The notes: generated by a model not told the origin, from the letters alone. A stretch of DNA of 64,000 bases from Candidatus Bathyarchaeia archaeon (GCA_038882955.1 JAVZNC010000002.1:203691-267690), one strand, 5' to 3'; counted from the first letter of the stretch, positions 613 through 25,698 are shown. A program made the numbers and translations.

Positions 613-653
613 TTTGTGTAAGAGCATTTAACCAGCCTAGTAGTTGATCGGAG

Positions 654-1427: not shown

Positions 1428-1450
1428 TTGTTAAAACTTTTAATATCTCG

Positions 1451-3994: not shown

Positions 3995-4002
3995 GCGGTT
4001 TT

Positions 4003-5133: not shown

Positions 5134-5152
5134 TTCCAAGAAACTGTTTGCT

Positions 5153-5677
5153 TTGGGTGGGGATAAAGTGAGGCTTGATGTTGGTTGTGGAAATGCTCCA
5201 ACTGGTGATGTTAATGTCGATCTTCAGGTTTCCGAATGACACCGTGATGGAGTAAAAATTTTTGCAAAGAAAATTCCAAATTTTGTTTATGCCTCAGTTT
5301 ATTTCCTACCCTTTCGCGATGACTGTTTCGATGAGGTTGTTTCTTACCATCTTCTGGAACATTTAGATACACCAATTTTAGCGCTTAAAGAGATGATCCG
5401 TGTATCAAAAAATACAGTTTCTGTTGTTGTCCCAGCCTTTGGATATCTAGGAGAATGCGGAGAACATATTTATACGTGGAGTGAAGGAAGCCTTTATAAC
5501 TTACTTCGCAAAAGTGGGTTGAAGAATGTCACGGTTTCCACAGGATGCTTTCGCGAAGTTAAAGGAAAAGTTTTGCGACGGCTCTATAAACGAAGCTACA
5601 TCCTCGGCAATTTTGCCATGATTTTCATGAAGAAATTATACCATATAGAGCTTCAAGGTAGAGGCCAAAAATATTGA
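5153..5677 (+). pseudogene. Class I SAM methyltransferase interrupted by an in-frame TGA at 5237-5239.
   Basis: One frame reads (L)GGDKVRLDVGCGNAPTGDVNVDLQVSE*HRDGVKIF..LPFRDDCFDEVVSYHLLEHLDTPILALKEMIRVSKNTVSVVVP. Motif I lies upstream of the stop and motifs II/III lie downstream. The ORF track only reports the 3' piece, 5393-5677. Confidence 0.6.
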
Positions 5678-5701
5678 ATGTTTAGTCAACCCGTTGTGCT
5701 C

Positions 5702-6769: not shown

Positions 6770-6894
6770 CGTGACCTAAATGGCTAATAACTTTAAAAGC
6801 ATTTAGACTAACTAAATCATTGTGCTTTTCAGCGAAAGAAGCTTAACATTTATTTTGTTTTATGCCATAAGTTTTTTAGCTGGCGTTGCCAAAG

Positions 6895-12835: not shown

Positions 12836-14884
12836 CTATGTTTTCTTTAGATAGCCTTCCCTAGGCTCATATATCGTTCCTTCACGCAGCAACTGCCCTA
12901 TGAGGCGTTCCGCTTCCGCCCTCGGAATCTTGTATTTATTTTCCAATTCGTCTATTAGCGCTTCCCTTTCAACGATTCCCGTCTCCTTCTCCATCTCCAT
13001 AAGCTTCGAAATTATCACTTGCAGTTTGTCCCTCGCGCTTTTTGGTTTTCCAGTCATTATTATGTCTATGTCAAGCTTGAATGAAGAGACATCGATGCCA
13101 ACCTCTTCAAGTGAACGCTTCATTATCGCAATTGCAGCCTCAGCGTCCTCAGCTAAAACCTCTTTTCTTAATGCTGCTCGGGCTCTAGCCTCTGCTACGC
13201 GCACAAGCGATTCAAGTTGGCGGGCTGTAATTGCGACTGGCGAGCTTTCTGACTCGGTTATTGAACGCATTGCCAAATAGAAATCTCTGAGTCGCTCTAA
13301 CGCCTCTTGGGTTAAAACCGGCTTTATTCCCCTCGCGTAACTTATGTATTTGCGCAGCAAATCTGATGGTATTGGGGGTTCTGCAGGGCTTGAGCCTTTC
13401 CTGTGCATTTCTAGGATGTGCTCTGACATTTTGCCGTCCATTTCCTTGTTCGGCACATCCCTTAAAATGAAAATTAAATCGAATCTCGAGAGTATTGTGA
13501 CTGGCAAGGAAATGTTTTCAGCAACTGTGCGGTGCGGCACGTACCTTCCTAGTGTCGGGTTTGCAGCTGCCAGAATGGCCGTTCTAGCGTTTAATGTTGC
13601 CACGATGCCGCCTTTTGCAACTGAAACCGTGTGCTGTTCCATTGCCTCGTGGATTGCAACTCTATCCTCTGGGCGCATCTTATCCATCTCATCGATACAC
13701 GCAATTCCCTTGTCAGCCAAAACCAAAGCGCCAGCCTCAAGGCTCATTCCTCCGCCTTTTTCGCGTATTACTGCTGCTGTTAAGCCAGCTGCTGTTGTGC
13801 CGCGTCCAGACGTGTATAACCCTCGGGGTGCAACCCTTGCCACGTACTGTAAGAGCTGCGATTTCGCTGTTCCCGGGTCGCCTATCAGAAGGGCGTTTAT
13901 CTCCCCCCTTATTGTTATGTCTGGGAGATTTTTTGGGACTCCGCCAAAAAGAAGGTACATTATCGCCTCTTTTATGTGGTCATAACCATAAATTGACGGT
14001 GCAATCGAATTTATTATCTTCCTATGTATCCACGGGTCCTTTGCCAACTCTAGGATTTTTTCCTCTTCTTCTGGTGATGGAAGCGCTGTTTCAGGCTCTT
14101 TACCCAAAACTTCTATAGAATTTGCATCCAAGTGAAGTCTGAAAGTGCGAAGTTTTCCAACTCTTGGAAGTGATGGAGCTACAACCCGAACCATGCCAAC
14201 TATTGAAACGTGGTCGCCTGGTCTTGCGACATCAACTATTTCTGCTCCGACAAGCTTAATTTGTAAGGTTCTTGGGAGCTGACCTGGTGGGAGGTCTTCT
14301 GGTCTTTCTTGGACGCGCAGTTCCTGTGAATCTATGAATGCAGATTCTTCTTGAATGAAGTCGAATGGTCCTTTTGCTCCGCATTCTGGGTTTCTGCATT
14401 TAAATGGTGCTTTTAGGAATTGTCCTGTTTGGTCTTCGAATGAGAGTTCTCCGCATCTTCTGCATTTGAATGCTGCCCGTAGAACCATTGGGCGCACTGG
14501 CGTCGAGCGTACCACGATACCTTCTATCATTACCAGTTTTCCAATGTGGTCTGAACCGAGTTTTCTTAGCGGCGTTGCCTCTAGCAGCCTAACGATTCTG
14601 GCGGTTAATGTTTCCCGTTTGCTGGTGAGCCTTTCGGCGTATTCTGGGTCTTCGCTTTCAAGCTGTGCATAGGCTGCATTATTGGCGTATTGTAGGTACT
14701 CGTCTGGTTTTTCAAGGAGTTTTTCTGCAAGTTTGTTGTCAAAGATTAGGATGTCTTCAAAATCAACTATTAATGATGTTTTGCCCGCAACAGCCAACTG
14801 TGCAATTTTTTGTCTGTACTTCTCTGTTTTGAAAAATTCTTGGAACTGTTCTTGGGGGTTTACAACCTCTAATTCTCCACTCAT
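12836..14884 (-). CDS. mcm: MCM replicative helicase.
   Basis: Zn finger CRRCG..CRNPECG. Walker A is GDPGTAKSQ, Walker B is CIDEMDKM, and the arginine finger is SRFDLIF. The ATG at 14884 forms an ATGA overlap with the gins23 stop. An alternative ATG lies at 14926. Confidence 0.95.
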   Translation of the reverse strand: MSGELEVVNPQEQFQEFFKTEKYRQKIAQLAVAGKTSLIVDFEDILIFDNKLAEKLLEKPDEYLQYANNAAYAQLESEDPEYAERLTSKRETLTARIVRLLEATPLRKLGSDHIGKLVMIEGIVVRSTPVRPMVLRAAFKCRRCGELSFEDQTGQFLKAPFKCRNPECGAKGPFDFIQEESAFIDSQELRVQERPEDLPPGQLPRTLQIKLVGAEIVDVARPGDHVSIVGMVRVVAPSLPRVGKLRTFRLHLDANSIEVLGKEPETALPSPEEEEKILELAKDPWIHRKIINSIAPSIYGYDHIKEAIMYLLFGGVPKNLPDITIRGEINALLIGDPGTAKSQLLQYVARVAPRGLYTSGRGTTAAGLTAAVIREKGGGMSLEAGALVLADKGIACIDEMDKMRPEDRVAIHEAMEQHTVSVAKGGIVATLNARTAILAAANPTLGRYVPHRTVAENISLPVTILSRFDLIFILRDVPNKEMDGKMSEHILEMHRKGSSPAEPPIPSDLLRKYISYARGIKPVLTQEALERLRDFYLAMRSITESESSPVAITARQLESLVRVAEARARAALRKEVLAEDAEAAIAIMKRSLEEVGIDVSSFKLDIDIIMTGKPKSARDKLQVIISKLMEMEKETGIVEREALIDELENKYKIPRAEAERLIGQLLREGTIYEPREGYLKKT

Positions 14885-15456
14885 TCTCCTCGCTCCTCTT
14901 CGTGCTCCAATATTTGAGCTTTCCATCTGTGGATAAGTTTGCGTAAACGTTCGTAAATTAGCCTTTCCTCACGCGTGAGGTTTTTCAAAATCTGTTCGGT
15001 TTGTCCAAAATTTGCAGTTGCCAGCGAAACAATCTTTTTTAGGCGCGCGTTAATCATGTCACGTATCACTTGCCTACTTTTTTCGTATTCCCTCATCTTT
15101 TCTGGAGACTTTGCCGAAGCCTTCTTTAGCTCCGCCAAATACCTTCGCAATTTTGGATAAAAGTTCTCTGGAAGCTTTGATATCTGGCTTGGCGTTTGGA
15201 CGCGTTCCATCCACTGAATCTTATAAATCTTTTTCGCATCCAAAAGTTCTTCTTCACGAAAGCGGACAATTCCAGCCCTTTCAAGTTCTTGTGCAATCCA
15301 GAACGGTACTTCGTACACATTTCCTTCTTCGAAAGGTCCAACATTCAGCCCCACAAGCTTAATTTCGGGGCAGTTCCTGTTTGCAATAACGCTTACTGGC
15401 AAATTTTCAAATTCGAAGTCTAAAGTTTTGATGTTTGGCAAAGTCTTTTCCTGCAT
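14881..15456 (-). CDS. gins23: GINS subunit Gins23 (B-domain first, permuted relative to Gins51).
   Basis: It lies directly upstream of mcm and is translationally coupled to it. The LPENFYPKLRRYLAEL A-domain motif sits in the C-terminal half. The start at 15456 is preceded by GGAAAGAGGAA. The ORF-track start at 15543 looks spurious. Confidence 0.65.
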   Translation of the reverse strand: MQEKTLPNIKTLDFEFENLPVSVIANRNCPEIKLVGLNVGPFEEGNVYEVPFWIAQELERAGIVRFREEELLDAKKIYKIQWMERVQTPSQISKLPENFYPKLRRYLAELKKASAKSPEKMREYEKSRQVIRDMINARLKKIVSLATANFGQTEQILKNLTREERLIYERLRKLIHRWKAQILEHEEERGE

Positions 15457-15590
15457 TTCCTCTTTCCCTTTATTTAGGACTATTTTCGCGTAGAAGATAT
15501 AAGGACAGTAGTTTAAAAATTTAGATTGCGAAATTAAAAACACGAAGGTTGTATGAGAAAATTGAATCTAGTCGATTCTGCGGTTTTCTG

Positions 15591-16850
15591 TTAAGGCCAT
15601 AGCCCCAATGTTTTTATTGCTTCGCTTACTCTTCCGATGCCAAGCATCAAAGCTGCTGTGCGCATGCTCTCTTTCTCCTTCTCCATCAAGTTGTAAACGT
15701 CATTAAACGCCTTCACCATAATGTTCTCGAGTTTTCTGTTCACTTCTTCAAGTGTCCAATGTTCCCTTGTCAGGTTTTGAACCCACTCGAAATAGCTTGC
15801 GGTTACACCGCCAGCATTTGCCAATATGTCTGGAACTAGGAAAACTCTTTTTTCCCGAAGTATTTTATCTGCCTCTGGAGTTGTCGGTCCGTTTGCACCT
15901 TCAACTATTATTTTTGCTCTTATCCTGTTTGCGTTGGCTTTTGTTATCTGGTTTTCAAGCGCCGCTGGTATTAGGATGTCACATTTTGTCTCAAGCAATT
16001 CTTCGTTTGATATATTCTTGCATTTTGGATAATTGATTACCGAGCCAGTTTTCATTTTATGTTCGTAAACTTTGCGTGGGTTTAACCCGTCTGGGCAATA
16101 AATTCCTCCAGCGGAATCGCTAACTGCCACGATTTTGCATCCCATGTCATGTGCGATTTTAGCTGCGTTCCATCCGACGTTTCCGTAGCCTTGCACTGCA
16201 GCTGTTGCGCCCTTAAACTTTAAGCCTAAACGTTTTGCTGCTTCTCTTGCGCAGATTACAACTCCTCTTGAGGTAGCTTCTTCTCTACCCTCAGAGCCTC
16301 CTACGCTTATTGGTTTGCCAGTGACGCATTCTGGTACGCTGTAACCTTTGTATTGGCTGTATGTGTCCATTATCCATGCCATTGTTTGCGCGTCTGTGTA
16401 CACGTCTGGTGCTGGCACATCACGGTATGGTCCAATATAGTCAAGAATTAGACTTGTGTATCTTCTTGTGAGCCTTTCCAGTTCAGTTTTTGACATTTCT
16501 TTCGGGTTGCAGCATACTCCGCCTTTTGCCCCTCCGTATGGAATGTCTACGACTGCGCATTTCCAAGTCATCCACATGGCGAGTGCTGTTACTTCTTCGA
16601 GTGTTACATTTGGGTGATAGCGTATGCCGCCTTTGAATGGTCCACGTGCATCCCAGTGTTGAACACGGCATCCATTGAATGTGCGTATGCTTCCGTCATC
16701 CATCCTTATTGTAATGGAAACAATTAACGACCTTTTAGGATGCTTCAGCATCTCATGGGTTCCAGGGTCTAAATTTAGTTTTTCAGCGGCTATTTCTAAC
16801 TGTTCCAAAGCCACATCTAATGCTGTTTGTTGCTCTTTCATATTCTCCAC
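15591..16850 (-). CDS. gdhA: Glutamate dehydrogenase (canonical 419 aa).
   Basis: GGIRYHP, PYGGAKGG, VQGYGNVG Rossmann motif, and EGANGPTTPEAD. Confidence 0.9.
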   Translation of the reverse strand: MENMKEQQTALDVALEQLEIAAEKLNLDPGTHEMLKHPKRSLIVSITIRMDDGSIRTFNGCRVQHWDARGPFKGGIRYHPNVTLEEVTALAMWMTWKCAVVDIPYGGAKGGVCCNPKEMSKTELERLTRRYTSLILDYIGPYRDVPAPDVYTDAQTMAWIMDTYSQYKGYSVPECVTGKPISVGGSEGREEATSRGVVICAREAAKRLGLKFKGATAAVQGYGNVGWNAAKIAHDMGCKIVAVSDSAGGIYCPDGLNPRKVYEHKMKTGSVINYPKCKNISNEELLETKCDILIPAALENQITKANANRIRAKIIVEGANGPTTPEADKILREKRVFLVPDILANAGGVTASYFEWVQNLTREHWTLEEVNRKLENIMVKAFNDVYNLMEKEKESMRTAALMLGIGRVSEAIKTLGLWP

Positions 16851-16923
16851 TCCTTACTATGTTTCTTCGCTAGTGGTTTTAAAACTTGTTCTGCGTGAAA
16901 CTTAAAAAAGAAGAGGAGGTTGG

Positions 16924-18540
16924 TTAGTCTAATATTCTTTCGATGGCATCTGCTTCAATCTCGTGCGGTAATGGTATGCCTGTCACTTTTGCGGCGATTT
17001 CTGATAGGCTCATCAGATCGTTTCTGTTTATTAGTTCCAGTTTCCATTTTCTGTTTCCAGCCAAGAGCTGCTTTAAGCCGACGCCTATGCGGTCTGTCAA
17101 GTAAGTGTAAAGTGCAACTGCTTCCCATGGAATTTCTTTGAAGCGTTCGCCATGCTTTTCCTTGAGTTCCGGCGCTGCGATGAAGAATTTGTCTGGAGTG
17201 TTTCCGAATCTGTCCGCGAAGGCTTTTGGCAGTTTGCCCTCTTCAGCCAATTGTTTGAAGTAGTTTGCCTTCATTACAGCGGTTAATGGTGAGCGTCCCA
17301 TCAGAACCGCCTTCACGAACGGTCCGTCTCCGAAGTTGCTCATGGCGATTGCCTTGAAAATTTGTGTTTCGTTTATGAAGCCCCCAGCCATAATCAAGTC
17401 TGGAACGTATCTGCCCTTCTTTTTCAGTAATTGTGCGCACTTCAGAACTATTGCTTCTAAGTAAACGGTTGGTATGCTCATCTCGTCCATCATTGGAACG
17501 GGGCTCATTCCAGTTCCGCCGCCAGCACCGTCAAAGTATACCGCGTCAATCTTTGCTTCGGAGGCTATTTTTAGGGTGTATGCCACTGCTGTTGGTCTGT
17601 ATGCGCCAGTTTTTAGTGTCACGTGCTTTGCGCCTTGCTTGCGCAGCCATTCTATGTCTTCAATCATGTTCTTTTCTTTCGGTATTCCAACGCGGCTGTG
17701 TCTCTCGAAGGATTTGAAGACTCCTTCTTTGAATGCTTGCTGCACTGTAGGGTCTTCTGGGTCTGGGATAACTATATATCCTCTTTTCTTTAGCATTATC
17801 GCCTTTTGCAAGTCTCTTACGCGAACCTCGCCTCCAATCGCCTTTGCTCCTTGTCCCCACTTTCTCTCTATTACGTTGACTTCCAGTTTTGAGATGGCGT
17901 AGACGTCAACTCCCAAGCGTTGGTCTTCAACGTTTGTTTGGACGGCTATGTCTCCGTATTTTTCATCCCAGAACTTCCTGAACAAGTCTACTCTGCGTTT
18001 TAATTCTTTCGAATAGGTGACCTTGCCATTTGTGAATTGCGCTTCTGGGTCCATGCCGCAGACGTTTTCTCCGACGATTATTATGGCGCCTGACAATGCT
18101 GTGCCTATGGCTAATCCTTCCCAGTTTAGTCTTGCAACGTCTGTTGAGCCGAAGGCGCCGCATAAAACTGGTATTTTTAGTGGTATGCCTGCAACGACCG
18201 TTTCTGTGCTTGCGTTTGGAAACAGCGCAACATCGGAGTTTTCCTCTATTCCTAAAGCTTCAAAAAGTCCAGCTTGTATGTTGAAGTGTGACCAATCCAG
18301 TCCAAAGTCTTTGAGGGCGCCTGCTGTGCTGTATCCGAATTGTACTGGTTCTGGGTATAGTGCTTCTCTTCCTCTGAAAGCTGAAAGTCCAATTTCGCAC
18401 ATTATTGGGCAGTCGCGGATGCATATCGGGCACATTCCGCTTGTTGGGCTTGTGTCTTTGACTCGTGTGGTTGTTCCTGTTGTCGATTTTCCGTTCAAAT
18501 AAGAACTGTTTCTAAACACGCGTTCGGTCATCTTCTTCAC
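16924..18540 (-). CDS. Stand-alone glutamate synthase large-subunit-like FMN domain protein (GltB domain 2 family).
   Basis: TIM-barrel FMN motifs are present (DGAGGGTGMSP, IMAGGF). There is an N-terminal Cys cluster CPICIRDCPIMCE. No adjacent amidotransferase domain or GltD partner is present. Confidence 0.75.
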   Translation of the reverse strand: MKKMTERVFRNSSYLNGKSTTGTTTRVKDTSPTSGMCPICIRDCPIMCEIGLSAFRGREALYPEPVQFGYSTAGALKDFGLDWSHFNIQAGLFEALGIEENSDVALFPNASTETVVAGIPLKIPVLCGAFGSTDVARLNWEGLAIGTALSGAIIIVGENVCGMDPEAQFTNGKVTYSKELKRRVDLFRKFWDEKYGDIAVQTNVEDQRLGVDVYAISKLEVNVIERKWGQGAKAIGGEVRVRDLQKAIMLKKRGYIVIPDPEDPTVQQAFKEGVFKSFERHSRVGIPKEKNMIEDIEWLRKQGAKHVTLKTGAYRPTAVAYTLKIASEAKIDAVYFDGAGGGTGMSPVPMMDEMSIPTVYLEAIVLKCAQLLKKKGRYVPDLIMAGGFINETQIFKAIAMSNFGDGPFVKAVLMGRSPLTAVMKANYFKQLAEEGKLPKAFADRFGNTPDKFFIAAPELKEKHGERFKEIPWEAVALYTYLTDRIGVGLKQLLAGNRKWKLELINRNDLMSLSEIAAKVTGIPLPHEIEADAIERILD

Positions 18541-18618
18541 CCTTTTACGTTTGTAAATTTCGGTATGAAGGGGTTAATTTTAGTCAACATTTAAACATTA
18601 CCCTAGAAACAGCGAAAA

Positions 18619-18638
18619 ATGAACATGAATGTACATGA
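18619..18638. promoter_or_regulatory. Tandem ATG(A/T)ACATGA boxes upstream of the GltB-like gene (candidate operator).
   Basis: ATGAACATGA (18619-18628) is followed immediately by ATGTACATGA (18629-18638). Extra AACAT half-sites at 18586-18598 flank a TTTAAA TATA-like element. Confidence 0.3.
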
Positions 18639-18660
18639 AGCGTGCAATTTTACCTCGCCA

Positions 18661-19386
18661 TTAAAGAACATCTATTTGTAAGCCCTTAACTGTGTACTCT
18701 CGCCGCTGATATGTTTGCGGATTATACCTTCCACCAGCCTTCTTTATCTGCAAAAAGTTTTTGTCACCCTGCCTTGAAAGGTCAATAACAACTTGTGTCA
18801 TATGCTCAATTATTGCACAAAACTCTTTTGGATGCGCGTTCTTCGCCATCGTCCAACAAGCAAGAGTTTGATAAGCATACAATGCGGGGCAAACATGCCC
18901 AAAAAACGTCTTGACCGCGTCTCTTCCCCAATTATGCTCCATAATTGACAAACTGTTAAAAACAAGCCTTGTACCTGGAGTTACAAATTCTCTTTCAATT
19001 CTCCCGAAAAAGTGGTGAAAACGCTCTGGATCTTTGGAGCTTGGAACTTTTCTAATCCACGTTGGTGCCTTGTCATAAAAATCACTGAATATGAGTTCGC
19101 CTTGTCCAGCTGCTTCTGAAAAACAGTCTAATACTAGCAGTTTCTTTTCCCATCCGTCTGGCAATGACTTGGTTAACGGTTCAAGTTGGAGTATCAGCGC
19201 TTGTGGAGGATATATGAAATCTAGGTAAATTACCTGCTTTCCTTCTAATAGTCCTTGACGCATAAATGAATATAAAAATTCTCTCGCGAAGGTTCCAGAT
19301 TCAACCTCCCACAAAACATTCTCTCCTAGGAATAAACCGCCTTCAAGGAGCTTGTCTAGGCTTTTTATTCCAGTTGAATGAGGCAT
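18661..19386 (-). CDS. KaiC/RecA-superfamily protein with a degenerate Walker A.
   Basis: TGIKSLDKLLEGGLFLGENVLWEVESGTFAREFLYSF aligns to the KaiC-like consensus G.LD.LLGGGL..G...L..G.PGTGKT, but the GKT is replaced. A Walker-B-like LVLDCFSE is present. The start is taken at M34. The 33 upstream codons look non-coding. Confidence 0.5.
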   Translation of the reverse strand: MPHSTGIKSLDKLLEGGLFLGENVLWEVESGTFAREFLYSFMRQGLLEGKQVIYLDFIYPPQALILQLEPLTKSLPDGWEKKLLVLDCFSEAAGQGELIFSDFYDKAPTWIRKVPSSKDPERFHHFFGRIEREFVTPGTRLVFNSLSIMEHNWGRDAVKTFFGHVCPALYAYQTLACWTMAKNAHPKEFCAIIEHMTQVVIDLSRQGDKNFLQIKKAGGRYNPQTYQRREYTVKGLQIDVL

Positions 19387-19487
19387 TTGTTTTTCGCTTG
19401 TCAATGTTGTGCACCGTGTGTAAGAGTTTGCGGGCACCATTAAAAATGTTATGTTGTAATTTGGTTGTTTTATTGTGTTGTACAAGT

Positions 19488-19525
19488 GTGTACATAATGG
19501 ACATAATATTTCTATAGTTGAACAT
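19488..19525. promoter_or_regulatory. Related boxes in the divergent KaiC-like / GDH2 intergenic region (candidate operator).
   Basis: GTGTACAT (19488-19495), ATGGACAT (19497-19504) and TTGAACAT (19518-19525). ATGTTATGTT at 19446-19455 lies on the other side. Confidence 0.3.
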
Positions 19526-19558
19526 TGCTTTTGTTAGTCTTCGGAAGGTGTGAAAAAG

Positions 19559-21337
19559 ATGTTGAACTCGGTAGAACTTTCAGCTCGTGAATTAGGAATG
19601 CTCAAGTTAATGGTGGACTTCTTCGCCGAAAAACCAGAGTTAACAGCAAAAATAGAAAGTTACACAACAGCCCACTATGCCTTACTGACAACGTACTCTG
19701 AAAACTTTGGCATACCCATAGAAGATTCTCTAAAGGCTTTTGAAGAGCTAAGGAAGAAGTTGATGGATGCCGAGTACGTCCATGTGAAAGCGCCAGAACC
19801 CATAAAGAAACTTTTGCCCTTAACACGCGATGAACTTAATATGCTGCGCGTTCTCGCTGACTATTTCTCCGAGAGTCCAAAAATGGCTCCTGCTGGGGCT
19901 TTCCTCTCTAGGAAAGAAGACGCTTTAGTTGAGACGTATTTATGGTTTTACGGAAACAGTGAAGGCAACGGCGAAGTAGCGAGGGAAACTCTCAAAAACC
20001 TAGTTGAGAAACTCCAAACGGCAGTTTTCGTCAAAGTGGATACATTGGCTCCTATTGCGGTTGCGCCAAACCCTTACGAAGCCGCCCTTAAACAGCTAGA
20101 CGTGGCTGTCGAAAAACTGAATCTTGACCCGGGCATACACGAAATATTAAAGCGTCCAATGCGTACCCTCATCGTTAACATTCCAGTAGTCATGGACGAC
20201 GGCAGCATTCAAGTTTTCACCGGATACCGCGTGCAATACAATGACGCTTTGGGTCCAACAAAGGGCGGCATAAGATACCATCCAGACCTAACCCTGGACG
20301 AAGTCACAGCCCTAGCCGCTTGGATGACGTGGAAAACAGCCGTAACAGGTTTGCCTCTTGGCGGAGGCAAAGGTGGAATCAGATGCAATCCTAAGGAGAT
20401 GTCAAGGGCAGAGCTTGAGCGCCTCACAAGAGGATATGTACGTGCCATAGCAAAGTTCATAGGACCCTTCACGGACGTGCCTGCCCCAGATGTGTACACA
20501 ACTGCGGAAATGATGGCTTGGATAATGGACGAATACAGTGAAATAGTCGGTTATCCAGTTTTCGGCGTGGTGACTGGAAAACCTGTTCATGTTGGCGGTT
20601 CTCATGGAAGAAGCGAGGCTACATCAAGGGGACTCATGTACACAGTTGTCGAGGCAGCCAAACATCTCGGAATAAATCTCAAGGGTGCAACAGTTGCAGT
20701 GCAAGGATATGGAAACGTAGGCTATCATGCGGCACGCCTGCTACATGAAATCGGATGCAAAATAATCGCGGTTTCAGACTCTAAAGGTGGCGTTTATAAC
20801 CCAGAAGGTTTGGACCCGGAAAAAGTTCTTGTTCACAAGGAGAAAACTGGTTCGGTGGTTGAATACCCTGGCAGCACTTTCATAACAAATGAGCAATTGT
20901 TAGAACTAGAATGCGACATCTTGGTTCCAGCGGCGTTGGAAAACCAAATAACAAAGGAAAACGCTGCAAACATAAAAGCGAAAATCGTTGCAGAAGGGGC
21001 TAACGGACCTACAACTCCAGAGGCGGATGAAATTCTGTTCAAAAAAGGCGTTTTCGTAATCCCCGACATTCTCGCCAACTCCGGCGGAGTGATTGTCAGC
21101 TACTTTGAACAAGTGCAAAATCAAATGAACTATTACTGGACTGAAGAAGAGGTTAGGAATAAACTGAAGGAAACAATAACCAAAGCTTTCCACGATGTGC
21201 TCAAAATGTCAAAACAGTACAATGTGAACATGCGCACAGCAGCCTACATGTTGGCCGTAAAAAGAGTGGCAGACGCGCTTGTAGCCAGAAAGGGCACAAC
21301 GTTCAGCCCCATCGTACCACCATTAACACCAAGTTAA
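19559..21337 (+). CDS. Glutamate dehydrogenase paralog with a ~170-aa N-terminal tandem-repeat extension.
   Basis: The C-terminal ~420 aa carry all GDH motifs (GGIRYHP, PLGGGKGG, VQGYGNVG, EGANGPTTPEAD). The N-terminus holds two ~80-aa repeats. The SD-like GGAAGGTG lies 8 nt before the ATG at 19559. An alternative GTG start is at 19550. Confidence 0.85.
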   Translation: MLNSVELSARELGMLKLMVDFFAEKPELTAKIESYTTAHYALLTTYSENFGIPIEDSLKAFEELRKKLMDAEYVHVKAPEPIKKLLPLTRDELNMLRVLADYFSESPKMAPAGAFLSRKEDALVETYLWFYGNSEGNGEVARETLKNLVEKLQTAVFVKVDTLAPIAVAPNPYEAALKQLDVAVEKLNLDPGIHEILKRPMRTLIVNIPVVMDDGSIQVFTGYRVQYNDALGPTKGGIRYHPDLTLDEVTALAAWMTWKTAVTGLPLGGGKGGIRCNPKEMSRAELERLTRGYVRAIAKFIGPFTDVPAPDVYTTAEMMAWIMDEYSEIVGYPVFGVVTGKPVHVGGSHGRSEATSRGLMYTVVEAAKHLGINLKGATVAVQGYGNVGYHAARLLHEIGCKIIAVSDSKGGVYNPEGLDPEKVLVHKEKTGSVVEYPGSTFITNEQLLELECDILVPAALENQITKENAANIKAKIVAEGANGPTTPEADEILFKKGVFVIPDILANSGGVIVSYFEQVQNQMNYYWTEEEVRNKLKETITKAFHDVLKMSKQYNVNMRTAAYMLAVKRVADALVARKGTTFSPIVPPLTPS

Positions 21338-21362
21338 CATCCCCCCTCCCCCCTTTTCTCTT

Positions 21363-21392
21363 ATGTACATTCAAGAATTTTTTATGAACATG
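21363..21392. promoter_or_regulatory. Paired boxes abutting the TATA-like element of the RHH-orphan gene (candidate autoregulatory operator).
   Basis: ATGTACAT (21363-21370) and ATGAACATG (21384-21392) are 21 bp apart centre to centre. TTTAAAAG follows at 21393-21400, and the ATG is at 21433. Confidence 0.3.
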
Positions 21393-21432
21393 TTTAAAAG
21401 CAACCGATTCAAAAAATAACCCGTGAAACAGC

Positions 21433-23391
21433 ATGTCCGTACACCTTCACACAACAATAACCAAAAAGACAAACGAGGTACTTGAAGAACTAGCAAAAAC
21501 CTATGGCACAAAAAGCCGCGTTCTCGAAAAAGCCGTAGAAACTCTGCTTAGGGTTGACAAAGTTGGTTCTTGCGATGATTGCACAATAAAAGCAAAAATT
21601 AACGAACAAACCAAACTGAGAGAGGCGCTTGACCTAACATCGGTTAGCAGAAAAAGCCTTGACAGCCTCCTTGAAGTTGCCCTTGGAAACAGAACAGTTG
21701 AAGACTTGATAAGGGAACAAAAAGCAGAGGCAAAGAACATAATCGAGATACTAAAAAGCTCTGTTGCATGGAGGGCTCCATCGACCTTCAAGGAGTTTCT
21801 ACTGGTCCTAGAAGAGATAAAAGGGCTTACAAACCTCTTTGACATTCCATCATACAGCGAAATCGACAGTGTAGCCGTGCTAAGACCCAGAGTCTTTAAA
21901 CGCTTACCCGTAATGGTTGCCTTCCAAATTGCCACAATATTAGAGGGCATAGGCGTAAATTTCGACTTGCGAATTATGGGTGAAGACATAGCCATAAAAA
22001 TGATTCGCCCCGAAATTTACCCATTAAGGAGAAAGGAATTCGGCGAATTCTTGGAGCAACAGATTGAAAAAGAACTAGCAAATGTAACTCCAGGCTTGTT
22101 CAAAAACACACTTATGCTTGTTGGACCAGCCTTCATGAATTGGGCTGAGAAGCATCTTGAGGAACCAGTAACAGAATTGGGCAACTTCATAGAAGATGCA
22201 AGAACCGTTCTCGGCATCGACGAGTTTCCGAGGGAGCCAAAAGATTTTGTTAAGACTATTCTTTCGGCCTTTGTCAAAATGAACTGGTTTAGGCAAGTTA
22301 AAGTTTTAACAGAGAAAGAAGAGAACACCTTAGAACTTGTTTTCCAAGCAACGACAGCTCAAACAGCTCGTTTATCCTTAACAGTACTTTCGATAATGCT
22401 TGCAACACGCGGATGGAAGCTACTGCATCACTCAATTGAACATGCAAACGTGAACATGACAATAAAATACGTAGGCGCAGAAGACCAAAGCATCCTAGAT
22501 CAACTAGCAGAACTCAACCTTTTCCAAATAATAGGAAAACAATTCCTAGATGTTGTTCCAATCCCCCGCGACCTCTTCAACTCCTTCGCTGCAAAAGTAT
22601 ACGAAAGTGACAGACAAAAATTTGAAGAAATATACCGCGCAACAGGAGTCCGCATCTCCAACGCCATCCGCATGCTTGCTCGGGGCGACCCAGAAAAAAT
22701 TGGTAGACTTTCCAAAAACTTTATCATCAAAAGCATCAGCGTGACGCAGCCCGACGCTGAAGTAAGGTTTGTTGACGACGAGCACTTCACCATCATTTTT
22801 AAGCGGATAGACCCCCTTGTAATGAACAGCCAACGCATCTTAATAGAATCCATGTTTAAGGAGCTAGGCTACGAAGTTTCAACAACGACATTCCAGAACC
22901 TACTAAGCTTTAAACTAAAACTTTTGGAAAAGCCAGTTCTAGAACCCTTACCGCGGAAAAAGCTTATGCAAACACTAATCGAAGGAATGTCATGCAACTC
23001 CATCGAAGAAGCTTTCGCCGTTGAAAGAGAACAGTTGGACGCGCTTTTTCCAGAAGACTACCCGTGGACTATCAAAGATGTCGGTGAAAGGCTTATTGAC
23101 ATGTACCGCGAACTCGGCATAGAAGTTGAAATAGAATATTTTGAAGGCGGCTTCACTCTCAAATACAAAAGTTGCCCCTATTACAAACTGGTCAAAACCA
23201 ATCAGAAGACTTGGCTCTGCGGTCTTCGGAAGAAAACACTAGAATACATTATTTCTAGGGTTAGCCACGGCAAAAAGGGGCGAATGAAAATAATAAAATC
23301 TCTGCTCCAGAATGAGCATCCATGCGAATACGCCATATTCCTAACAGGCTTCCTTGAAAAAGAAGAAAAACCAATTGAGACACAAAGCTAG
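21433..23391 (+). CDS. Orphan 652-aa protein with an N-terminal ribbon-helix-helix-like segment and a C-terminal Cys-triad V4R/MOD1-like module. Putative ligand-sensing regulator.
   Basis: The N-terminus VHLHTTITKKTNEVLEELAKTYGTKSRVLEKAVETLL fits a beta-alpha-alpha RHH pattern. The C-terminus is FTLKYKSCPYYKL..WLCGLRKKTLEYII..HPCEYAIFL. I recognise no other family. Confidence 0.4.
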   Translation: MSVHLHTTITKKTNEVLEELAKTYGTKSRVLEKAVETLLRVDKVGSCDDCTIKAKINEQTKLREALDLTSVSRKSLDSLLEVALGNRTVEDLIREQKAEAKNIIEILKSSVAWRAPSTFKEFLLVLEEIKGLTNLFDIPSYSEIDSVAVLRPRVFKRLPVMVAFQIATILEGIGVNFDLRIMGEDIAIKMIRPEIYPLRRKEFGEFLEQQIEKELANVTPGLFKNTLMLVGPAFMNWAEKHLEEPVTELGNFIEDARTVLGIDEFPREPKDFVKTILSAFVKMNWFRQVKVLTEKEENTLELVFQATTAQTARLSLTVLSIMLATRGWKLLHHSIEHANVNMTIKYVGAEDQSILDQLAELNLFQIIGKQFLDVVPIPRDLFNSFAAKVYESDRQKFEEIYRATGVRISNAIRMLARGDPEKIGRLSKNFIIKSISVTQPDAEVRFVDDEHFTIIFKRIDPLVMNSQRILIESMFKELGYEVSTTTFQNLLSFKLKLLEKPVLEPLPRKKLMQTLIEGMSCNSIEEAFAVEREQLDALFPEDYPWTIKDVGERLIDMYRELGIEVEIEYFEGGFTLKYKSCPYYKLVKTNQKTWLCGLRKKTLEYIISRVSHGKKGRMKIIKSLLQNEHPCEYAIFLTGFLEKEEKPIETQS

Positions 23392-23467
23392 GTTTAAGCA
23401 CCGTTCAGTAAGCATTTATTAGCACTAACACGTATGAAAACTATGAGGGTTGTCCTTGAGTTTTGAG

Positions 23468-24427
23468 ATGTGGGCTGAAAAGTACAGACCAAAAACATTG
23501 GATGAAATGGTTGACCAAAAGGAGATAGTTGAGCGATTAAAGAGCTTCGTTAAATCCAAAAATGTGCCACATTGCATTTTCGCTGGACCGCCTGGAACTG
23601 GAAAGACCACTGCTGCGCTTTGTTTGGCTAGGGACTTGTATGGAGATGCTTACCGAGAGCACATAATGGAGTTGAACGCTAGCGACGAGAGGGGTATAGA
23701 CGTTGTGAGGGAAACTGTCAAAACCTTTGCTCGTGTGCGGTCTATTGGCGAAATACCATTTAAACTTATGATTTTAGATGAAGCGGACAACATGACTGCC
23801 GATGCTCAGCAAGCCCTAAGGCGTACAATGGAGCGGTATACTGAAACATGCCGTTTCATTTTATGTGCAAACTACAGCGGAAAAATAATTGAGCCTATAC
23901 AGTCACGCTGCGCCCCGTTTCGTTTCACATTTCTGCCAAGGGAAGAACATGACAAATACCTTAAGTGCATAGCGGAAAACGAAGGCATCAAACTTCTGAA
24001 GGACGGATTGGACGCGATTTTTGAGGTTTGCGGCGGCGATTTGCGAAAGGCGATAAACACGCTTCAAGCTGCTGCATCGCTGAACAAGCCAATAGACGCG
24101 AAGGTTGTTTATTCCATTGCGGGTAGGGCTCACCCAGCAGATGTGCAGAAAATGATAGAAACTGCGATTAACGGCGACTTTCTAGAAGCCAGAAAACAAC
24201 TGCGCGACATGATTCAAAAATATGGTGTGGCTGGAAGCGACATAATTAGGCAAATTCACACCGAAATTTTCAGAGCGGATATTCCAGAGCCTTGGAAAAT
24301 AAAGTTGGCAGACATTGTCGGCGATATAGATTATAGGCTTGTTGAGGGCGCAGACGAGGAGGTTCAGCTAAGCGCCTTGTTGGCGAGGCTTGTGGAGGCT
24401 GGCTACGAGATTAAAAAGACAAGTTAG
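23468..24427 (+). CDS. rfcS: Replication factor C small subunit.
   Basis: MWAEKYRPKTLDE, GPPGTGKTT, ILDEADNMT, SRC motif (QSRCAPFRF). Confidence 0.9.
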   Translation: MWAEKYRPKTLDEMVDQKEIVERLKSFVKSKNVPHCIFAGPPGTGKTTAALCLARDLYGDAYREHIMELNASDERGIDVVRETVKTFARVRSIGEIPFKLMILDEADNMTADAQQALRRTMERYTETCRFILCANYSGKIIEPIQSRCAPFRFTFLPREEHDKYLKCIAENEGIKLLKDGLDAIFEVCGGDLRKAINTLQAAASLNKPIDAKVVYSIAGRAHPADVQKMIETAINGDFLEARKQLRDMIQKYGVAGSDIIRQIHTEIFRADIPEPWKIKLADIVGDIDYRLVEGADEEVQLSALLARLVEAGYEIKKTS

Positions 24428-24438
24428 GTGCAAAGTGT

Positions 24439-25698
24439 TTGTACGCTGCTTGGACTGTTAAGCACAAGCCAAAATCCCTAGACGAAATCGTTGGAAACAA
24501 AGAGGCTATCCAAACCTTTATTGAATGGATAAAATCTTGGGAGAAAGGCATACCCAAAAAACGTGCAGCTTTCATTTTTGGTCCTCCAGGCATTGGAAAA
24601 ACAGTTACCGTTGAGGCTCTTGCCGCTGATTTTAAGATGGAACTTGTTGAGAAAAACGCAAGCGACTATAGGACTGAAGAGGCGATTAACCGTTTTGCTG
24701 GTTTAGCTTCGCAGTATGGCTCGCTTTTCGGCGGCAAAAGAATCATACTGTTGGATGAGCTTGACGGGCTTACTGGCACAGCTGACAAGGGCGGCGTTAA
24801 AGCCATAACAGACATTGTTAAAATTGCCCAGTGCCCAATAGTTTTGATTGCAAACAACGCTTATGACCCAAGATTTGCCAATCTCCGCAACTACTGCCTA
24901 CTAATAGAGTTTAAGAAGCCGCCAACAAGCGAAGTCATGAAACATTTGAAGCGCATATGCATCCGTGAGGGAATACAAGCAGACGATGACGCCTTAAAGT
25001 TTATTGCACAGCGTTCAGAAGGCGATGTCCGCTCGGCAGTTAATGACCTTCAAGCATTAGCCCAAGGCAAGAAGAGACTGACGTATGAGGATGTTTCTTG
25101 GCTTGGCTATAGGGATAGGCAAGACACCATTTTTAATGTTTTGAGAATGATAATTTATGCGCGTACATGCAACAGCGCAAAACAAGCGTTTGACATGGCT
25201 GACGTTGACATTGATATGCTTTTTGAGTGGATTTACGAGAACGTTCCAGCGCATTTAACTGAACCGCACGATTTGGCAAGGGCTATGGATGCGCTTTCGA
25301 TGGCAGACGTCTATCGGGGCAGAATCCGCTCCACACAAGATTGGAGTTTCACGCGCTACGTTATTGATTACATGACCGCTGGCGTTGCAATGGCTAGGCA
25401 AAACACGAAGACACGCGGGTTTATACCATTCAAGTTTCCAACGCGCATACAAATGTTGTCTAGGTCCAAGGCTGAACGTGCAATACAACTAAACATTGGA
25501 CAGAAGATTAAGCGAAAATGTCACATATCCGCTAATAGAGCTTCAAAGGAGATAATCCCCTACCTTAAGATAATATTCAAGAATAATGTTGAAATGGCTG
25601 CCGGACTTGCAAAATGGCTTGATTTGGACGTGGAAATGATTGAGTATCTGACAGAGGATAAGAAAAAAGCGGATGCCATTGCTAAACTTGTAGGTTAA
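24439..25698 (+). CDS. rfcL: Replication factor C large subunit.
   Basis: WTVKHKPKSLDEIVG, GPPGIGKT, LLDELDG. It lies directly downstream of rfcS. TTG start. Confidence 0.85.
   Translation: MYAAWTVKHKPKSLDEIVGNKEAIQTFIEWIKSWEKGIPKKRAAFIFGPPGIGKTVTVEALAADFKMELVEKNASDYRTEEAINRFAGLASQYGSLFGGKRIILLDELDGLTGTADKGGVKAITDIVKIAQCPIVLIANNAYDPRFANLRNYCLLIEFKKPPTSEVMKHLKRICIREGIQADDDALKFIAQRSEGDVRSAVNDLQALAQGKKRLTYEDVSWLGYRDRQDTIFNVLRMIIYARTCNSAKQAFDMADVDIDMLFEWIYENVPAHLTEPHDLARAMDALSMADVYRGRIRSTQDWSFTRYVIDYMTAGVAMARQNTKTRGFIPFKFPTRIQMLSRSKAERAIQLNIGQKIKRKCHISANRASKEIIPYLKIIFKNNVEMAAGLAKWLDLDVEMIEYLTEDKKKADAIAKLVG

Follow-up and report, generated by a model that had tools for sequence, protein, structure and literature searches.

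A conserved glutamate dehydrogenase cassette with its own operator in Bathyarchaeia and Asgard archaea, and ORF652 as its candidate regulator

In a 64-kb stretch of DNA from a Candidatus Bathyarchaeia archaeon (hereafter, the window), we found an island of five genes whose core is a triad: a KaiC-like gene (iKaiC), the divergent gene of an N-terminally extended glutamate dehydrogenase (GDH2) and, after it, the gene of a 652-aa protein (ORF652). The island looks like a self-contained regulatory and metabolic module around glutamate dehydrogenase. Our main reading, to which we assign a probability of about 55% on the basis of sequence comparisons, is that ORF652 would be a one-component transcription factor that controls a glutamate/2-oxoglutarate regulon as well as its own gene, with iKaiC and the GDH2 extension as its partners.

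An earlier, sequence-only reading had placed five non-replication genes between gins23-mcm and rfcS-rfcL. All five ORFs were confirmed at positions 15591-23391, with replication genes on both sides. The minus strand carries GDH1, the gene of a GltB-like FMN protein and that of a KaiC-like protein lacking the P-loop; the plus strand carries GDH2 and then ORF652.

12836-14926, minus strand: MCM, upstream flank of the island
14881-15543, minus strand: GINS23, upstream flank of the island
15591-16850, minus strand: GDH1, canonical glutamate dehydrogenase of 419 aa (PF02812 and PF00208)
16924-18540, minus strand: GltB-like, stand-alone FMN-domain protein of ~535 aa with a local PF01645 match and a four-Cys cluster
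18661-19386 (mechanical ORF to 19485), minus strand: iKaiC, KaiC/RecA-fold protein of 241 aa with a degenerate Walker A
19550-21337, plus strand: GDH2, core residues ~173-580 behind an N-terminal extension of ~170 aa, likely start at ATG 19559
21433-23391, plus strand: ORF652, 652 aa, with an RHH-like N-terminus, CxxC, central alpha/beta region and MetOD1/V4R-like C-terminus
23450-24427, plus strand: RFC-S, downstream flank of the island
24439-25698, plus strand: RFC-L, downstream flank of the island

Then, we compared gene neighbourhoods across 150 loci, including 67 genome loci anchored on ORF652 and 80 metagenome loci anchored on iKaiC. Whichever the anchor, the triad (iKaiC divergent from extended GDH2, followed by ORF652) was intact in every locus with enough sequence. 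Indeed, it was always complete in the ORF652-anchored genome loci with enough flank (Bathyarchaeia, Promethearchaeota, Hermodarchaeota and Thorarchaeota), in 47/47 iKaiC-anchored metagenome loci and on contigs of Jordarchaeaceae and Hodarchaeota. It also persists where all neighbours are replaced, as in Asgard and some Bathyarchaeia (L036-L038, L041), and through inversions and flank swaps (L020, L021, L039, L046, L056). The orthologs are thus strongly co-localised, contrary to the scattering that would have spoken against a module. Next after iKaiC, the Asgard loci carry a PyrK/NfnA-like FAD/2Fe-2S protein and the Bathyarchaeia loci an FMN/Cys-cluster protein.

The GltB-like/GDH1 pair adjoins the triad only in most Bathyarchaeia, and can be relocated or absent. 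In most loci of Bathyarchaeia, GDH1 is found next to the GltB-like gene, and both move together in L046. The pair is a Bathyarchaeia accretion onto the core triad. Hence, of the five-gene module proposed from the sequence, the linkage stands but the equality of its five members does not, as the mapping separates a core triad from the pair. The placement among replisome genes holds in this genome and is a lineage-specific synteny, absent in Asgard.

The motif shared by three of the intergenic regions proved to be real. It is an operator in which the palindrome ATGWACAT is repeated in tandem with a spacing of about 10 bp, on either side of the TATA boxes at the promoters of the GltB-like gene, iKaiC/GDH2 and ORF652. 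The window contains 14 occurrences of ATGDACAT against 5.45 expected, 7/14 of which lie in the three island intergenic regions (378 bp in total), as do all closely spaced box pairs of the 64 kb (3/3); single matches elsewhere in the window fall within long ORFs. Across 1.12 Mb of loci, 156/175 operator pairs are located at the three promoters, and no operator boxes were found on replication-gene promoters. The promoter elements are the following.

18588-18636, minus strand: GltB-like promoter, with TATA-like TTTAAA (18590-18595) and boxes ATGAACAT (18619-18626) and ATGTACAT (18629-18636)
19438-19525, between the divergent genes: iKaiC/GDH2 control region, with four boxes and a TATA on both sides
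within 19438-19450: TATA on the iKaiC side
19479-19484: iKaiC/GDH2 box 1, TGTACA
19489-19495: iKaiC/GDH2 box 2, TGTACAT
19497-19504: iKaiC/GDH2 box 3, ATGGACAT
19509-19516: GDH2 TATA, TTTCTATA
19519-19525: iKaiC/GDH2 box 4, TGAACAT
21363-21401, plus strand: ORF652 promoter, with boxes ATGTACAT (21363-21370) and ATGAACAT (21384-21391) and TATA-like GTTTAAAAGC (21392-21401)

Among 120 unique iKaiC/GDH2 promoters, the consensus is TGTaCA-n4-TGTACAT-n-ATGnACAT-AAng-TTTcTATA-nT-TGAACAT, and most box positions are at least 90% conserved. The two boxes of the GltB-like promoter are spaced by 10 bp and precede the TATA box by about 25-40 nt. They are retained in at least 30 loci and, where the gene has moved or been inverted (L046, L065), go with it. 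At the ORF652 promoter, where the second box abuts the TATA-like element, the boxes are kept in Bathyarchaeia, and the Asgard form is ATGTACA-ag-ATTAATAAA-n4-TGTACA. In general, the operator is conserved from Bathyarchaeia to Asgard, is almost absent away from the three promoters and is co-inherited with ORF652 across phyla. An operator common to three promoters is good comparative evidence for the co-regulation that had been suggested.

ORF652, previously regarded as an orphan, belongs instead to a conserved family distributed over two archaeal groups, Bathyarchaeia and six Asgard lineages; two separate searches gave 487 and 225 homologs. Identity is 50-53% between Bathyarchaeia and Asgard and 58-94% inside Bathyarchaeia. 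No Pfam or NCBIfam family matched ORF652 at E≤0.01. Its layout comprises RHH-like residues 3-40, C47-x2-C50, an alpha/beta centre and a MetOD1/V4R-like region at ~506-635, and in 42 homologs C47, C50, C581, C596, C631, H629 and E632 are invariant.

At the N-terminus, the RHH-clan matches are sub-threshold (RHH_3, E 0.03, 14.7 bits vs a cutoff of 21.6; RHH_1, 0.081; PSK_trans_fac, 0.11), the end-to-end alignment with CopG (E 1.5) and the match with NikR are non-significant, and the best sequence match to reach significance (E 1e-3) is with DNA ligase, in a helix-hairpin-helix segment. The topology of residues 1-45 is that of an RHH protein: strand, helix A, a G-x-S/T/N turn and helix B, with alternating polar residues in the strand. 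Coherently, the AlphaFold model places helices 11-24 and 27-40 behind residues 1-10, which are unstructured, as expected if the strand forms only on dimerisation. The turn G25-T-K-S is invariant in G25-T26-K27 and almost so in S28; H4, H6 and T8, putative base-contacting residues of the strand, do not vary either. In distant Hodarchaeales paralogs, annotated as response regulators, the N-terminal module (residues ~1-190) is joined to a receiver domain, which indicates that it behaves as a signalling output.

ORF652 shares with the metabolite-responsive RHH regulators MetJ, CopG, NikR and PutA a short strand-helix-helix at the N-terminus, in whose strand polar residues alternate, autoregulation (proposed here) and, with NikR, a predicted C-terminal ligand or metal domain; the tandem 8-bp palindromic boxes resemble the metbox arrays of MetJ, with a spacing of 9-10 bp vs 8 bp. 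It differs in that RHH models match it only below threshold (E 0.03-1.5), it is 4-15 times longer, and an invariant CxxC directly follows the RHH, with about 600 residues of alpha/beta modules. Some homologs are named CopG- or DinJ-type antitoxins by JGI, a name that derives only from the RHH-like N-terminus. We rejected a type II antitoxin assignment: ORF652 has 652 aa vs ~70-100 aa, it stands beside GDH2 and RFC-S or other housekeeping genes where an antitoxin would have an adjacent toxin gene, and PADLOC gave no hits.

At the C-terminus, the MetOD1 model PF18546 gave 16.0 bits (E 0.013) for ORF652, under the gathering score of 23.8, and 24.5 bits for the 75% identical homolog P0079; precomputed PF18546 is present in 3 of the best 120 homologs. 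MetOD1 has been described as a relative of two sensor domains, HNOB and V4R, and of an enzyme domain, ATC hydrolase, with three conserved Cys (PMC5847659). ORF652 has three invariant Cys in this region, C581, C596 and C631, with H629 and E632. The structure model is moderate (pLDDT 69, pTM 0.39) and has no fold matches at E≤1e-3, while Foldseek picked a cluster of H-NOX structures (probability 0.96-0.99, E about 0.03). The C-terminal domain of ~130 residues with three conserved Cys resembles that of V4R/MetOD1/H-NOX sensors such as the phenol sensors MopR and PoxR. In methanogens, MetOD1 is a response-regulator output domain on receiver or PAS domains (PMC5847659), whereas ORF652 has an RHH-like N-terminus. 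The idea that the module has its own sensor-regulator finds support: the make-up of ORF652 is that of a DNA-binding sensor, with RHH and MetOD1 matches that stay below curated thresholds.

The KaiC-like protein does lack a functional P-loop. At the Walker A position it reads ESGTFAREF in place of GxxGxGKT, the pattern is E-x-[ST]-[GA]-T-F-x-x-E-F with no Lys in 19/19 aligned orthologs, and a Walker-B-like LLVLDCF is retained; given the lost P-loop, we consider iKaiC an inactivated KaiC-like protein without ATPase activity. From the ortholog alignment, its most likely start is ATG 19386. The best Pfam match is PAXNEB (34.5 bits, cutoff 28), which Asgard orthologs also carry in precomputed Pfam, and KaiC PF06745 scores 22.9 bits (cutoff 26.6); the ortholog profile matches KaiC at E 4e-7, and a further match, at E 5e-5, is to SSO2452. 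Inactivated KaiC-like domains (iKaiC, MEDS, DUF835) and archaeal KaiC-like signalling ATPases are treated in Makarova et al. 2017, as cited in PMC5847659. The island protein shares with these domains the KaiC/RecA-fold similarity over the N-terminal ~95 residues, the lost P-loop Lys and the genomic association with signalling or regulatory proteins. It differs as a stand-alone 241-aa family closest to PAXNEB/Elp4, strictly linked to GDH and ORF652. This association was not found in the searchable literature, a scope that does not extend to Makarova et al. 2017.

Both GDHs contain the full-length dimerisation (PF02812, ELFV_dehydrog_N) and catalytic/NAD(P) (PF00208, ELFV_dehydrog) domains of Glu/Leu/Phe/Val dehydrogenases, with E 3.8e-57 and 1.4e-87 in GDH1 and E 3e-58 and 5.6e-89 in GDH2, and GDH1 shares 63% identity with the GDH2 core. 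This core is a genuine GDH of the glutamate-specific hexameric type, scoring 554 bits against that of T. litoralis (1bvu). On the NCBIfam equivalog GdhA_Arch (NF040817), GDH1 scores 575 bits and GDH2 641, and judging from their sequences both are clear GDHs although below its 750-bit cutoff. The motifs are GPFKGGIRYH, GGAKGG and GGVTASYFE in GDH1, and GPTKGGIRYH, GGGKGG and GGVIVSYFE in GDH2; going by established structural work on GDHs, both contain the catalytic Lys (in GG(G/A)KGG) and the residues that bind the side chain of glutamate (Lys of P-x-KGGIR and Ser of GGV-x-x-SYFE). For the suggestion that the two may use different cofactors there is a lead, from a difference between SDS[K/R]G, found in 106/108 motif-bearing GDH2 orthologs, and SDS[A/V/M/T/S]G in GDH1 orthologs. 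GDH2 most likely starts at ATG 19559 (592 aa), preceded by the SD-like GGAAGGTG. Its extension consists of two helical repeats of ~80 aa (internal repeat 32% identity, E 6e-8), is kept in both Bathyarchaeia and Asgard, and had no relative in PDB or Pfam.

The GltB-like gene lies 73 bp from GDH1, the downstream member of the pair. Its assignment holds insofar as PF01645 is above cutoff (42.1 bits vs 20.4, E 8e-11, residues 286-400), and it goes no further than GltB-like, as the match is partial (model positions 185-296 of 369). The protein carries an N-terminal cluster, C37-x2-C40-x3-C44-x3-C48, kept in orthologs, and is annotated in the source as "glutamate synthase-related protein". It has more than 6795 homologs (78-94% identity among the best 120 of them), which carry precomputed PF01645, and is 80-98% identical across Bathyarchaeia loci. 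It shares with the archaeal split glutamate synthase, or "FMN-binding glutamate synthase family protein", the PF01645 FMN-site region with the phosphate-binding stretch GAGGGTG and the stand-alone organisation, and its Cys cluster could accept electrons from ferredoxin. Unlike that system, amidotransferase and GXGXG domains are found neither on the protein nor among its conserved neighbours. Sequence searches gave no PDB relative and no profile match to solved glutamate synthases.

Beside the observed gene content, triad conservation, operator conservation and specificity, and domain features, we infer operator binding by ORF652, whether it represses or activates, its ligand and every contact between the proteins, as follows. 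An N-terminal ribbon-helix-helix dimer of ORF652 would bind the tandem 8-bp palindromes ATGWACAT, while the sensing of a small molecule would fall to the C-terminal V4R/MetOD1-like metal-Cys domain together with the central alpha/beta region. Occupancy would repress the ORF652 and GDH2 promoters, because their boxes overlap both BRE/TATA and the segment from TATA to transcription start. It would activate the GltB-like(-GDH1) promoter, because its two boxes precede BRE/TATA by one to two helical turns, a typical position for archaeal activators. With such promoter-specific effects, ORF652 could switch between the GDH2 and the GltB-like/GDH1 routes of glutamate/2-oxoglutarate/ammonium interconversion. 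iKaiC and the GDH2 extension are proposed as its protein partners because both always co-occur with it, and GDH2 would report its own substrate state to the regulator. The tie of these two to ORF652 is one of gene linkage.

The operator could also be real but bound by a factor encoded elsewhere, with ORF652 and iKaiC as regulon members that would, for example, control the extended GDH2 after translation or help to assemble it. The sub-threshold RHH assignment and the atypical size and conservation of ORF652 would agree with this, and a distant regulator is possible because our search spanned 22-kb neighbourhoods. We consider it unlikely, at about one chance in five in our judgement, since in Asgard genomes, where the other neighbours are wholly different, ORF652 still comes with the operator, the operator on the promoter of ORF652 itself is a classic autoregulation layout, and the N-terminal module is fused to receiver domains in paralogs.

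Slightly less likely still is a multi-protein enzyme system without a dedicated regulator, in which the subunit ORF652 would act in catalysis or as a scaffold (for instance with its Cys/His site serving ATC-hydrolase-type chemistry, a metal or an Fe-S centre) and iKaiC would form a ring-shaped scaffold for hexameric GDH2. The length and conservation of ORF652, unusual for a transcription factor, would also fit an enzyme or structural role, and the kinship of MetOD1 with ATC hydrolase (PMC5847659) is a counterpoint to the sensor reading. High conservation of the three proteins across phyla, the five invariant Cys with H629 and E632, and the redox-type proteins after iKaiC point the same way. 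This explanation accounts for neither the RHH-like N-terminus, the receiver-domain paralogs nor the palindromic operator on three promoters, and ORF652 has no significant match to any enzyme family. As for inherited synteny without any functional link, the full MCM-to-RFC-L order is kept in 24/67 ORF652-anchored genome loci and 25/80 iKaiC-anchored metagenome loci, so plain synteny could explain the adjacency to replication genes. For the five genes themselves it is highly improbable and already contradicted, as the triad survives neighbour replacement, inversions and flank swaps, and the shared operator marks exactly these promoters.

If ORF652 is the regulator, the closest circuit is that of B. 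subtilis, where the GDHs RocG and GudB control GltC, the activator of glutamate synthase (PMC6794564). In both, a GDH, a transcription factor (a candidate here) and a glutamate-synthase-type target gene are tied together, and the sites of the factor (putative here) lie upstream of the target core promoter. However, GltC is a LysR-type HTH protein while ORF652 is RHH-like/V4R-like with 652 aa; RocG has no extra domain and is unlinked to gltC, while GDH2 has a tandem-repeat extension and always adjoins ORF652; the island, which is archaeal, includes an iKaiC, and the GDH-regulator interaction is hypothetical there. Tentatively, and with odds of only one in four, GDH2 may be an archaeal "trigger enzyme", its extension docking on ORF652 directly or via an iKaiC ring, so that the GDH catalytic state (glutamate, 2-oxoglutarate, NAD(P)H) would set transcription of the GltB-like/GDH1 route and of the cassette.

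Our literature search found no published description of this module, and the island core appears to form a self-regulating unit, so far undescribed, in central nitrogen/carbon metabolism. If the trigger-enzyme reading is true, three proteins and an operator of their own would make up a metabolic sensing device, a mobile unit common to Bathyarchaeia and Asgard, and the first nitrogen/carbon-balance regulator defined for either group of archaea.

The window is archaeal, with about 43% G+C, and the nearest relatives of its proteins were all Bathyarchaeia. The ORF listing and the Pfam and NCBIfam scans bore out the layout proposed by the sequence-only reading, with five genes placed between replication genes.

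Genes of the locus, in window coordinates (from the ORF listing and the Pfam/NCBIfam scans)
12836-14926, minus strand: MCM
14881-15543, minus strand: GINS23
15591-16850, minus strand: GDH1, canonical glutamate dehydrogenase of 419 aa
16924-18540, minus strand: GltB-like protein, with a local PF01645 match
18661-19485, minus strand: iKaiC, KaiC-like protein that aligns to KaiC and SSO2452
19550-21337, plus strand: GDH2, complete GDH core with an N-terminal extension
21433-23391, plus strand: ORF652, without Pfam or NCBIfam family at E<=0.01
23450-24427, plus strand: RFC-S
24439-25698, plus strand: RFC-L

Ortholog alignment placed the start of iKaiC at ATG 19386, giving a protein of 241 aa; for GDH2, the alignment and an SD-like sequence (GGAAGGTG) favour ATG 19559. 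After rfcL, positions 25735-27834 (minus strand) encode a 699-aa surface protein with FG-GAP and bacterial Ig-like repeats, which is present, diverged (47-82% identity) or absent across otherwise syntenic loci, while its neighbours are well conserved. Positions 1-8000 have 36-40% G+C, compared with 41-47% over most of the remaining window, and could be foreign DNA or a different genomic compartment; the GC skew is strongly positive over positions 1-2000, and a second, shorter G+C dip to 39-40% occurs at 46-50 kb. No intergenic non-coding RNA was found by Rfam, whose sole matches in the window were two tRNAs, far from the locus, at 50001-50093 (minus strand) and 47224-47308 (plus strand). Both are longer (93 and 85 nt) than the 71-position model and so may contain an intron or a long variable arm. 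A bacterial promoter and terminator scan of the window was uninformative, the host being an archaeon.

The gene neighbourhood was compared among 67 loci obtained by a genome scan with one genome per GTDB species, onto which the window proteins were mapped by tblastn. In every one of the 67 loci with sufficient flank, iKaiC (minus strand) was divergent from the extended GDH2 (plus strand), itself followed by ORF652 (plus strand); in L056 this triad was rearranged and still contiguous. An independent scan of metagenome contigs, with iKaiC as anchor, gave 80 loci, and the complete triad was present in 47/47 of those with enough sequence on the GDH2 side. Jordarchaeaceae and Hodarchaeota contigs likewise carried it. 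Indeed, iKaiC and the GDH2 extension never occurred apart from ORF652 in the loci compared, and the triad is strictly linked. On the basis of this mapping across Bathyarchaeia and Asgard archaea, the triad is the evolutionary unit.

The co-localisation proposed for all five genes thus held for the triad, which was linked throughout, but not for the GltB-like/GDH1 pair, which was relocated or absent in some loci. The full order MCM-GINS-GDH1-GltB-like-iKaiC, then divergently GDH2-ORF652-RFC-S-RFC-L, occurred in 24 of the 67 loci. The pair was absent within 7 kb in four Bathyarchaeia loci (L036-L038 and L041) and in 10/10 Asgard loci, and it was located after ORF652 in L046. Furthermore, the GltB-like gene was inverted in L044 and L065, and the replication flanks were swapped or inverted in L020, L021, and L039. 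Among the iKaiC-anchored metagenome loci, 58/62 had the GltB-like gene. The pair is a second unit, recruited in Bathyarchaeia, and the location amid replisome genes is lineage-specific synteny.

The motif reported as common to the three island intergenic regions was confirmed. ATGWACAT recurs in all three, and its core ATGTACAT is palindromic over 8 bp; ATGDACAT occurs 14 times in the window against 5.45 expected, and 7 of these copies lie within the 378 bp of island intergenic DNA. Pairs of the TGDACA core at 8-12 bp spacing were found only there (3/3 window pairs), with a mean of 0.7 pairs in shuffled sequence. Further regulon members within the window were rejected, as the remaining single matches are all inside long ORFs. 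Across 1.12 Mb of related loci, 156/175 TGDACA pairs were at the same three intergenic positions.

The consensus of 120 unique GDH2 promoters was TGTaCA-n4-TGTACAT-n-ATGnACAT-AAng-TTTcTATA-nT-TGAACAT, with most box positions at least 90% conserved. From centre to centre, the boxes are separated by 10, 9, and 21 bp, a spacing that puts them on one helix face, bracketing the TATA box, and the Asgard promoters have the same design. The ORF652 promoter has two boxes, the proximal one abutting the TATA box TTTAAAA. In the GltB-like promoter, two boxes 10 bp apart lie about 25-40 nt upstream of the TATA box, and in L046 and L065, where this gene is relocated or inverted, they move with it. The operator is common to the three promoters, highly specific, and phylum-spanning. 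No boxes were found in the MCM, GINS, and RFC promoters; for this reason, and because the adjacency is absent in Asgard archaea and some Bathyarchaeia, we rejected a functional tie to the replisome genes.

Other genes accompany the triad in part of the loci. Behind iKaiC, and on its strand, 8/10 Asgard loci and the Hodarchaeota contig L149 have a gene for a 278-aa PyrK/NfnA/SudB-like FAD/NAD(P) and 2Fe-2S protein (PF10418 and PF00175; L048:6292-7128 and L149:2233-3069, both minus strand), about 70 bp from iKaiC in L048. This gene fills the slot that the GltB-like gene occupies in Bathyarchaeia. No GltD/NfnB-like partner was found near the Asgard gene, and a copy is also near the triad in the Bathyarchaeia loci L044 and L056. 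The gene after ORF652 in 7/10 Asgard loci and contigs L149 and L150 encodes a 920-975-aa protein in which an ADP-forming acyl-CoA synthetase is fused to a GNAT acetyltransferase (L048:12032-14857 and L149:8155-10926, both plus strand), with the same architecture as bacterial Pat-type protein acetyltransferases. The next gene encodes an inorganic pyrophosphatase, and the fusion gene had no operator pair upstream. In some Bathyarchaeia, insertions between ORF652 and rfcS (L001:12018-14881; gaps of ~3 kb in L015, L027, and L057, and of ~1.3 kb in L063) make this junction a variable spot; on reading of the sequences, the insertion in L001 would be two paralogous genes (471 and 481 aa) resembling a TldD/PmbA-type metalloprotease pair. 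Several MAG loci had conserved genes in frame-shifted tblastn pieces (L005:3916-5393, L033:4166-5412, and the whole of L017, with MCM, GDH1, GltB-like, iKaiC, and RFC-S broken), a pattern suggestive of assembly or long-read indel error, not of pseudogenes.

The KaiC-like protein had been described as lacking a functional P-loop. Coherently, its Walker A position reads ESGTFAREF and the P-loop lysine is lost in all 19 aligned orthologs, with a Walker-B-like LLVLDCF retained; its "PAXNEB" label is corrected here to dead KaiC-like protein. In the GltB-like protein, the match to the glutamate-synthase FMN domain was only local (PF01645, 42 bits, positions 185-296 of the 369 in the model), and the database label "Glutamate synthase-related protein" is founded on this partial match. 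Its N-terminus bears a C-x2-C-x3-C-x3-C cluster, kept in orthologs. Against the PDB, its single sequence gave no match and its profile only spurious TALE matches.

The GDH2 core (residues 173-579) scored 554 bits to the Thermococcus litoralis GDH (1bvu) and is preceded by ~170 additional residues, composed of two ~80-residue helical repeats (32% identity, E 6e-8). This extension is real: it is fused in frame in every ortholog compared, and the Asgard copies are 39-43% identical. Sequence and profile searches found no relative of it in PDB or Pfam. GDH1 and the GDH2 core are 63% identical, compared with 68-71% between the GDH2 cores of Bathyarchaeia and Asgard archaea; thus, the paralogs are older than the event by which these two groups came to share the cassette. 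In the alignments, both retain the catalytic Lys as well as the Lys and Ser that bind glutamate, roles established by structural work on GDHs. Beside the dinucleotide fold, 106/108 motif-bearing GDH2 orthologs have SDS[K/R]G, like the T. litoralis enzyme with SDTKG, where GDH1 orthologs have SDS[A/V/M/T/S]G. Thermococcales GDH enzymes prefer NADP. That GDH1 and GDH2 may differ in cofactor preference is a lead only.

ORF652 turned out not to be the orphan it had been taken for. A search seeded with it returned 487 homologs, the best 120 of the 487 being 72-92% identical and all from Bathyarchaeia or metagenomic contigs; a search seeded with an Asgard ortholog returned 225, with named matches from Promethearchaeota, Hodarchaeota, Odinarchaeota, Thorarchaeota, and Jordarchaeaceae. 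The exact-sequence look-up in the assembly index gave no match.

In 42 sequences 49-88% identical to the window protein, the residues kept are H4, H6, T7, T8, I9, G25-T26-K27, C47, C50, C581, C596, and H629-P-C631-E632. In length and pattern, the N-terminus is like a ribbon-helix-helix (RHH): alternating polar strand residues, helix, G-x-[ST] turn, and helix. Consistent but sub-threshold matches were obtained to RHH_3 (E 0.03), RHH_1 (0.081), and PSK_trans_fac (0.11), and CopG aligned end to end (E 1.5). A helix-hairpin-helix competes with this reading: residues 18-45 (window 21484-21567, LAKTYGTKSRVLEKAVETLLRVDKVG) matched that of the Thermus NAD-dependent DNA ligase at E 1e-3, with a weaker match to Hef (E 0.16). 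Under each of the two readings, this would be a DNA-binding motif. We speculate that the invariant CxxC right behind a dimerising RHH could be an inter-subunit metal or Fe-S site. JGI names some homologs as CopG- or DinJ-type antitoxins, a reading ruled out by the protein size and the neighbours. KaiC-like plus RHH proteins are found in defence systems; an anti-phage reading was rejected, PADLOC giving no matches.

The C-terminal ~130 residues resemble MetOD1 (PF18546, gathering score 23.8), with 16 bits for the window protein and 24.5 bits for P0079, a homolog 75% identical to it. MetOD1 is related to H-NOX, V4R, and ATC-hydrolase domains and has a three-Cys cluster in common with the phenol-sensing V4R domains of MopR and PoxR (Galperin and colleagues, PMC5847659). 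AlphaFold gave an unusable model with 13 close homologs (pLDDT 47) and a pLDDT of 69 with 42 sequences including Asgard ones. The latter model has helices at 11-24 and 27-40 and four successive alpha-beta-beta-alpha-beta-beta units; we do not claim a repeat, since pairwise hhalign among the units was not significant. A Foldseek search of the PDB had no match at E<=1e-3, the best consistent cluster being H-NOX proteins (probability 0.96-0.99, E about 0.03, target TM-score about 0.38), and sequence and profile searches of the PDB gave no match.

An exhaustive HMMER search of 1.84 billion cluster representatives gave only 43 ORF652 matches: one full-length cluster, many fragments, and a few distant relatives. 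The latter (360-534 aa) have the N-terminal part in common and, by cluster look-up, belong to Hodarchaeales (P0151, P0152, and P0347) and Helarchaeota (P0124 and P0340); two carry a response-regulator annotation. P0151, which has a receiver domain at its own residues 393-506, aligns to residues 9-194 of ORF652. Some Asgard paralogs join the RHH-CxxC N-terminal ~190 residues, as N-terminal output, to a C-terminal REC, and others, of ~519 aa, are without the MetOD1-like end. The N-terminal module seems to be an output module, so far undescribed, of archaeal response regulators. The labels "hypothetical protein" and "antitoxin" for ORF652 are corrected.

We rate the cassette as a probable metabolite-responsive autoregulated operon system, whose individual parts come from known superfamilies (GDH, KaiC fold, GltS FMN domain, RHH-like and V4R-like domains). 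ORF652 combines, as judged from its homologies, DNA-binding-like and sensor-like ends, and its N-terminal module appears also in response regulators; most likely, it would bind the ATGWACAT arrays as cooperating dimers. Its occupancy would be expected to repress at the GDH2 and ORF652 promoters, where the boxes overlap BRE/TATA and the TATA-to-start interval, and could activate at the GltB-like promoter, where they lie upstream of BRE/TATA. A single signal could then switch between two routes that connect 2-oxoglutarate plus ammonium with glutamate. The most economical proposal for iKaiC and the GDH2 extension, which have no other evident role and accompany ORF652 throughout the loci compared, is that they would be partners of this regulator. 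A signal from GDH to regulator is plausible given Bacillus subtilis, in which the GDHs RocG and GudB inhibit GltC, the gltAB activator (PMC6794564).

Pure synteny is incompatible with the Asgard loci and with the operator. The operator may instead be bound by a factor encoded elsewhere. Alternatively, the triad may form an enzyme complex, with a catalytic or structural role for ORF652: at about 51% between phyla, this protein is strongly conserved for a regulator, and the relatives of MetOD1 include an enzyme.

The system had been thought undescribed, and full-text searches, which did not extend to the main archaeal KaiC-like survey, found no paper joining its components. As far as we found, the combination of GDH extension, ORF652 architecture, operator, and strict triad linkage is new.

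Bathyarchaeia and Asgard archaea are abundant and mostly uncultured, and to our knowledge next to nothing is known about the regulation of their central nitrogen and carbon metabolism. The locus yields a candidate family of regulators, with an operator that is precisely defined and conserved in more than 100 genomes, together with a small, clear regulon and, in the GDH extension and the linked dead KaiC, two protein modules that are new. The cassette is widespread in these two poorly understood archaeal groups and can be tested in vitro with recombinant proteins, with no need for culture. If the coupling between GDH and regulator is true, enzyme-mediated glutamate control would have arisen independently of the Bacillus RocG-GltC system.
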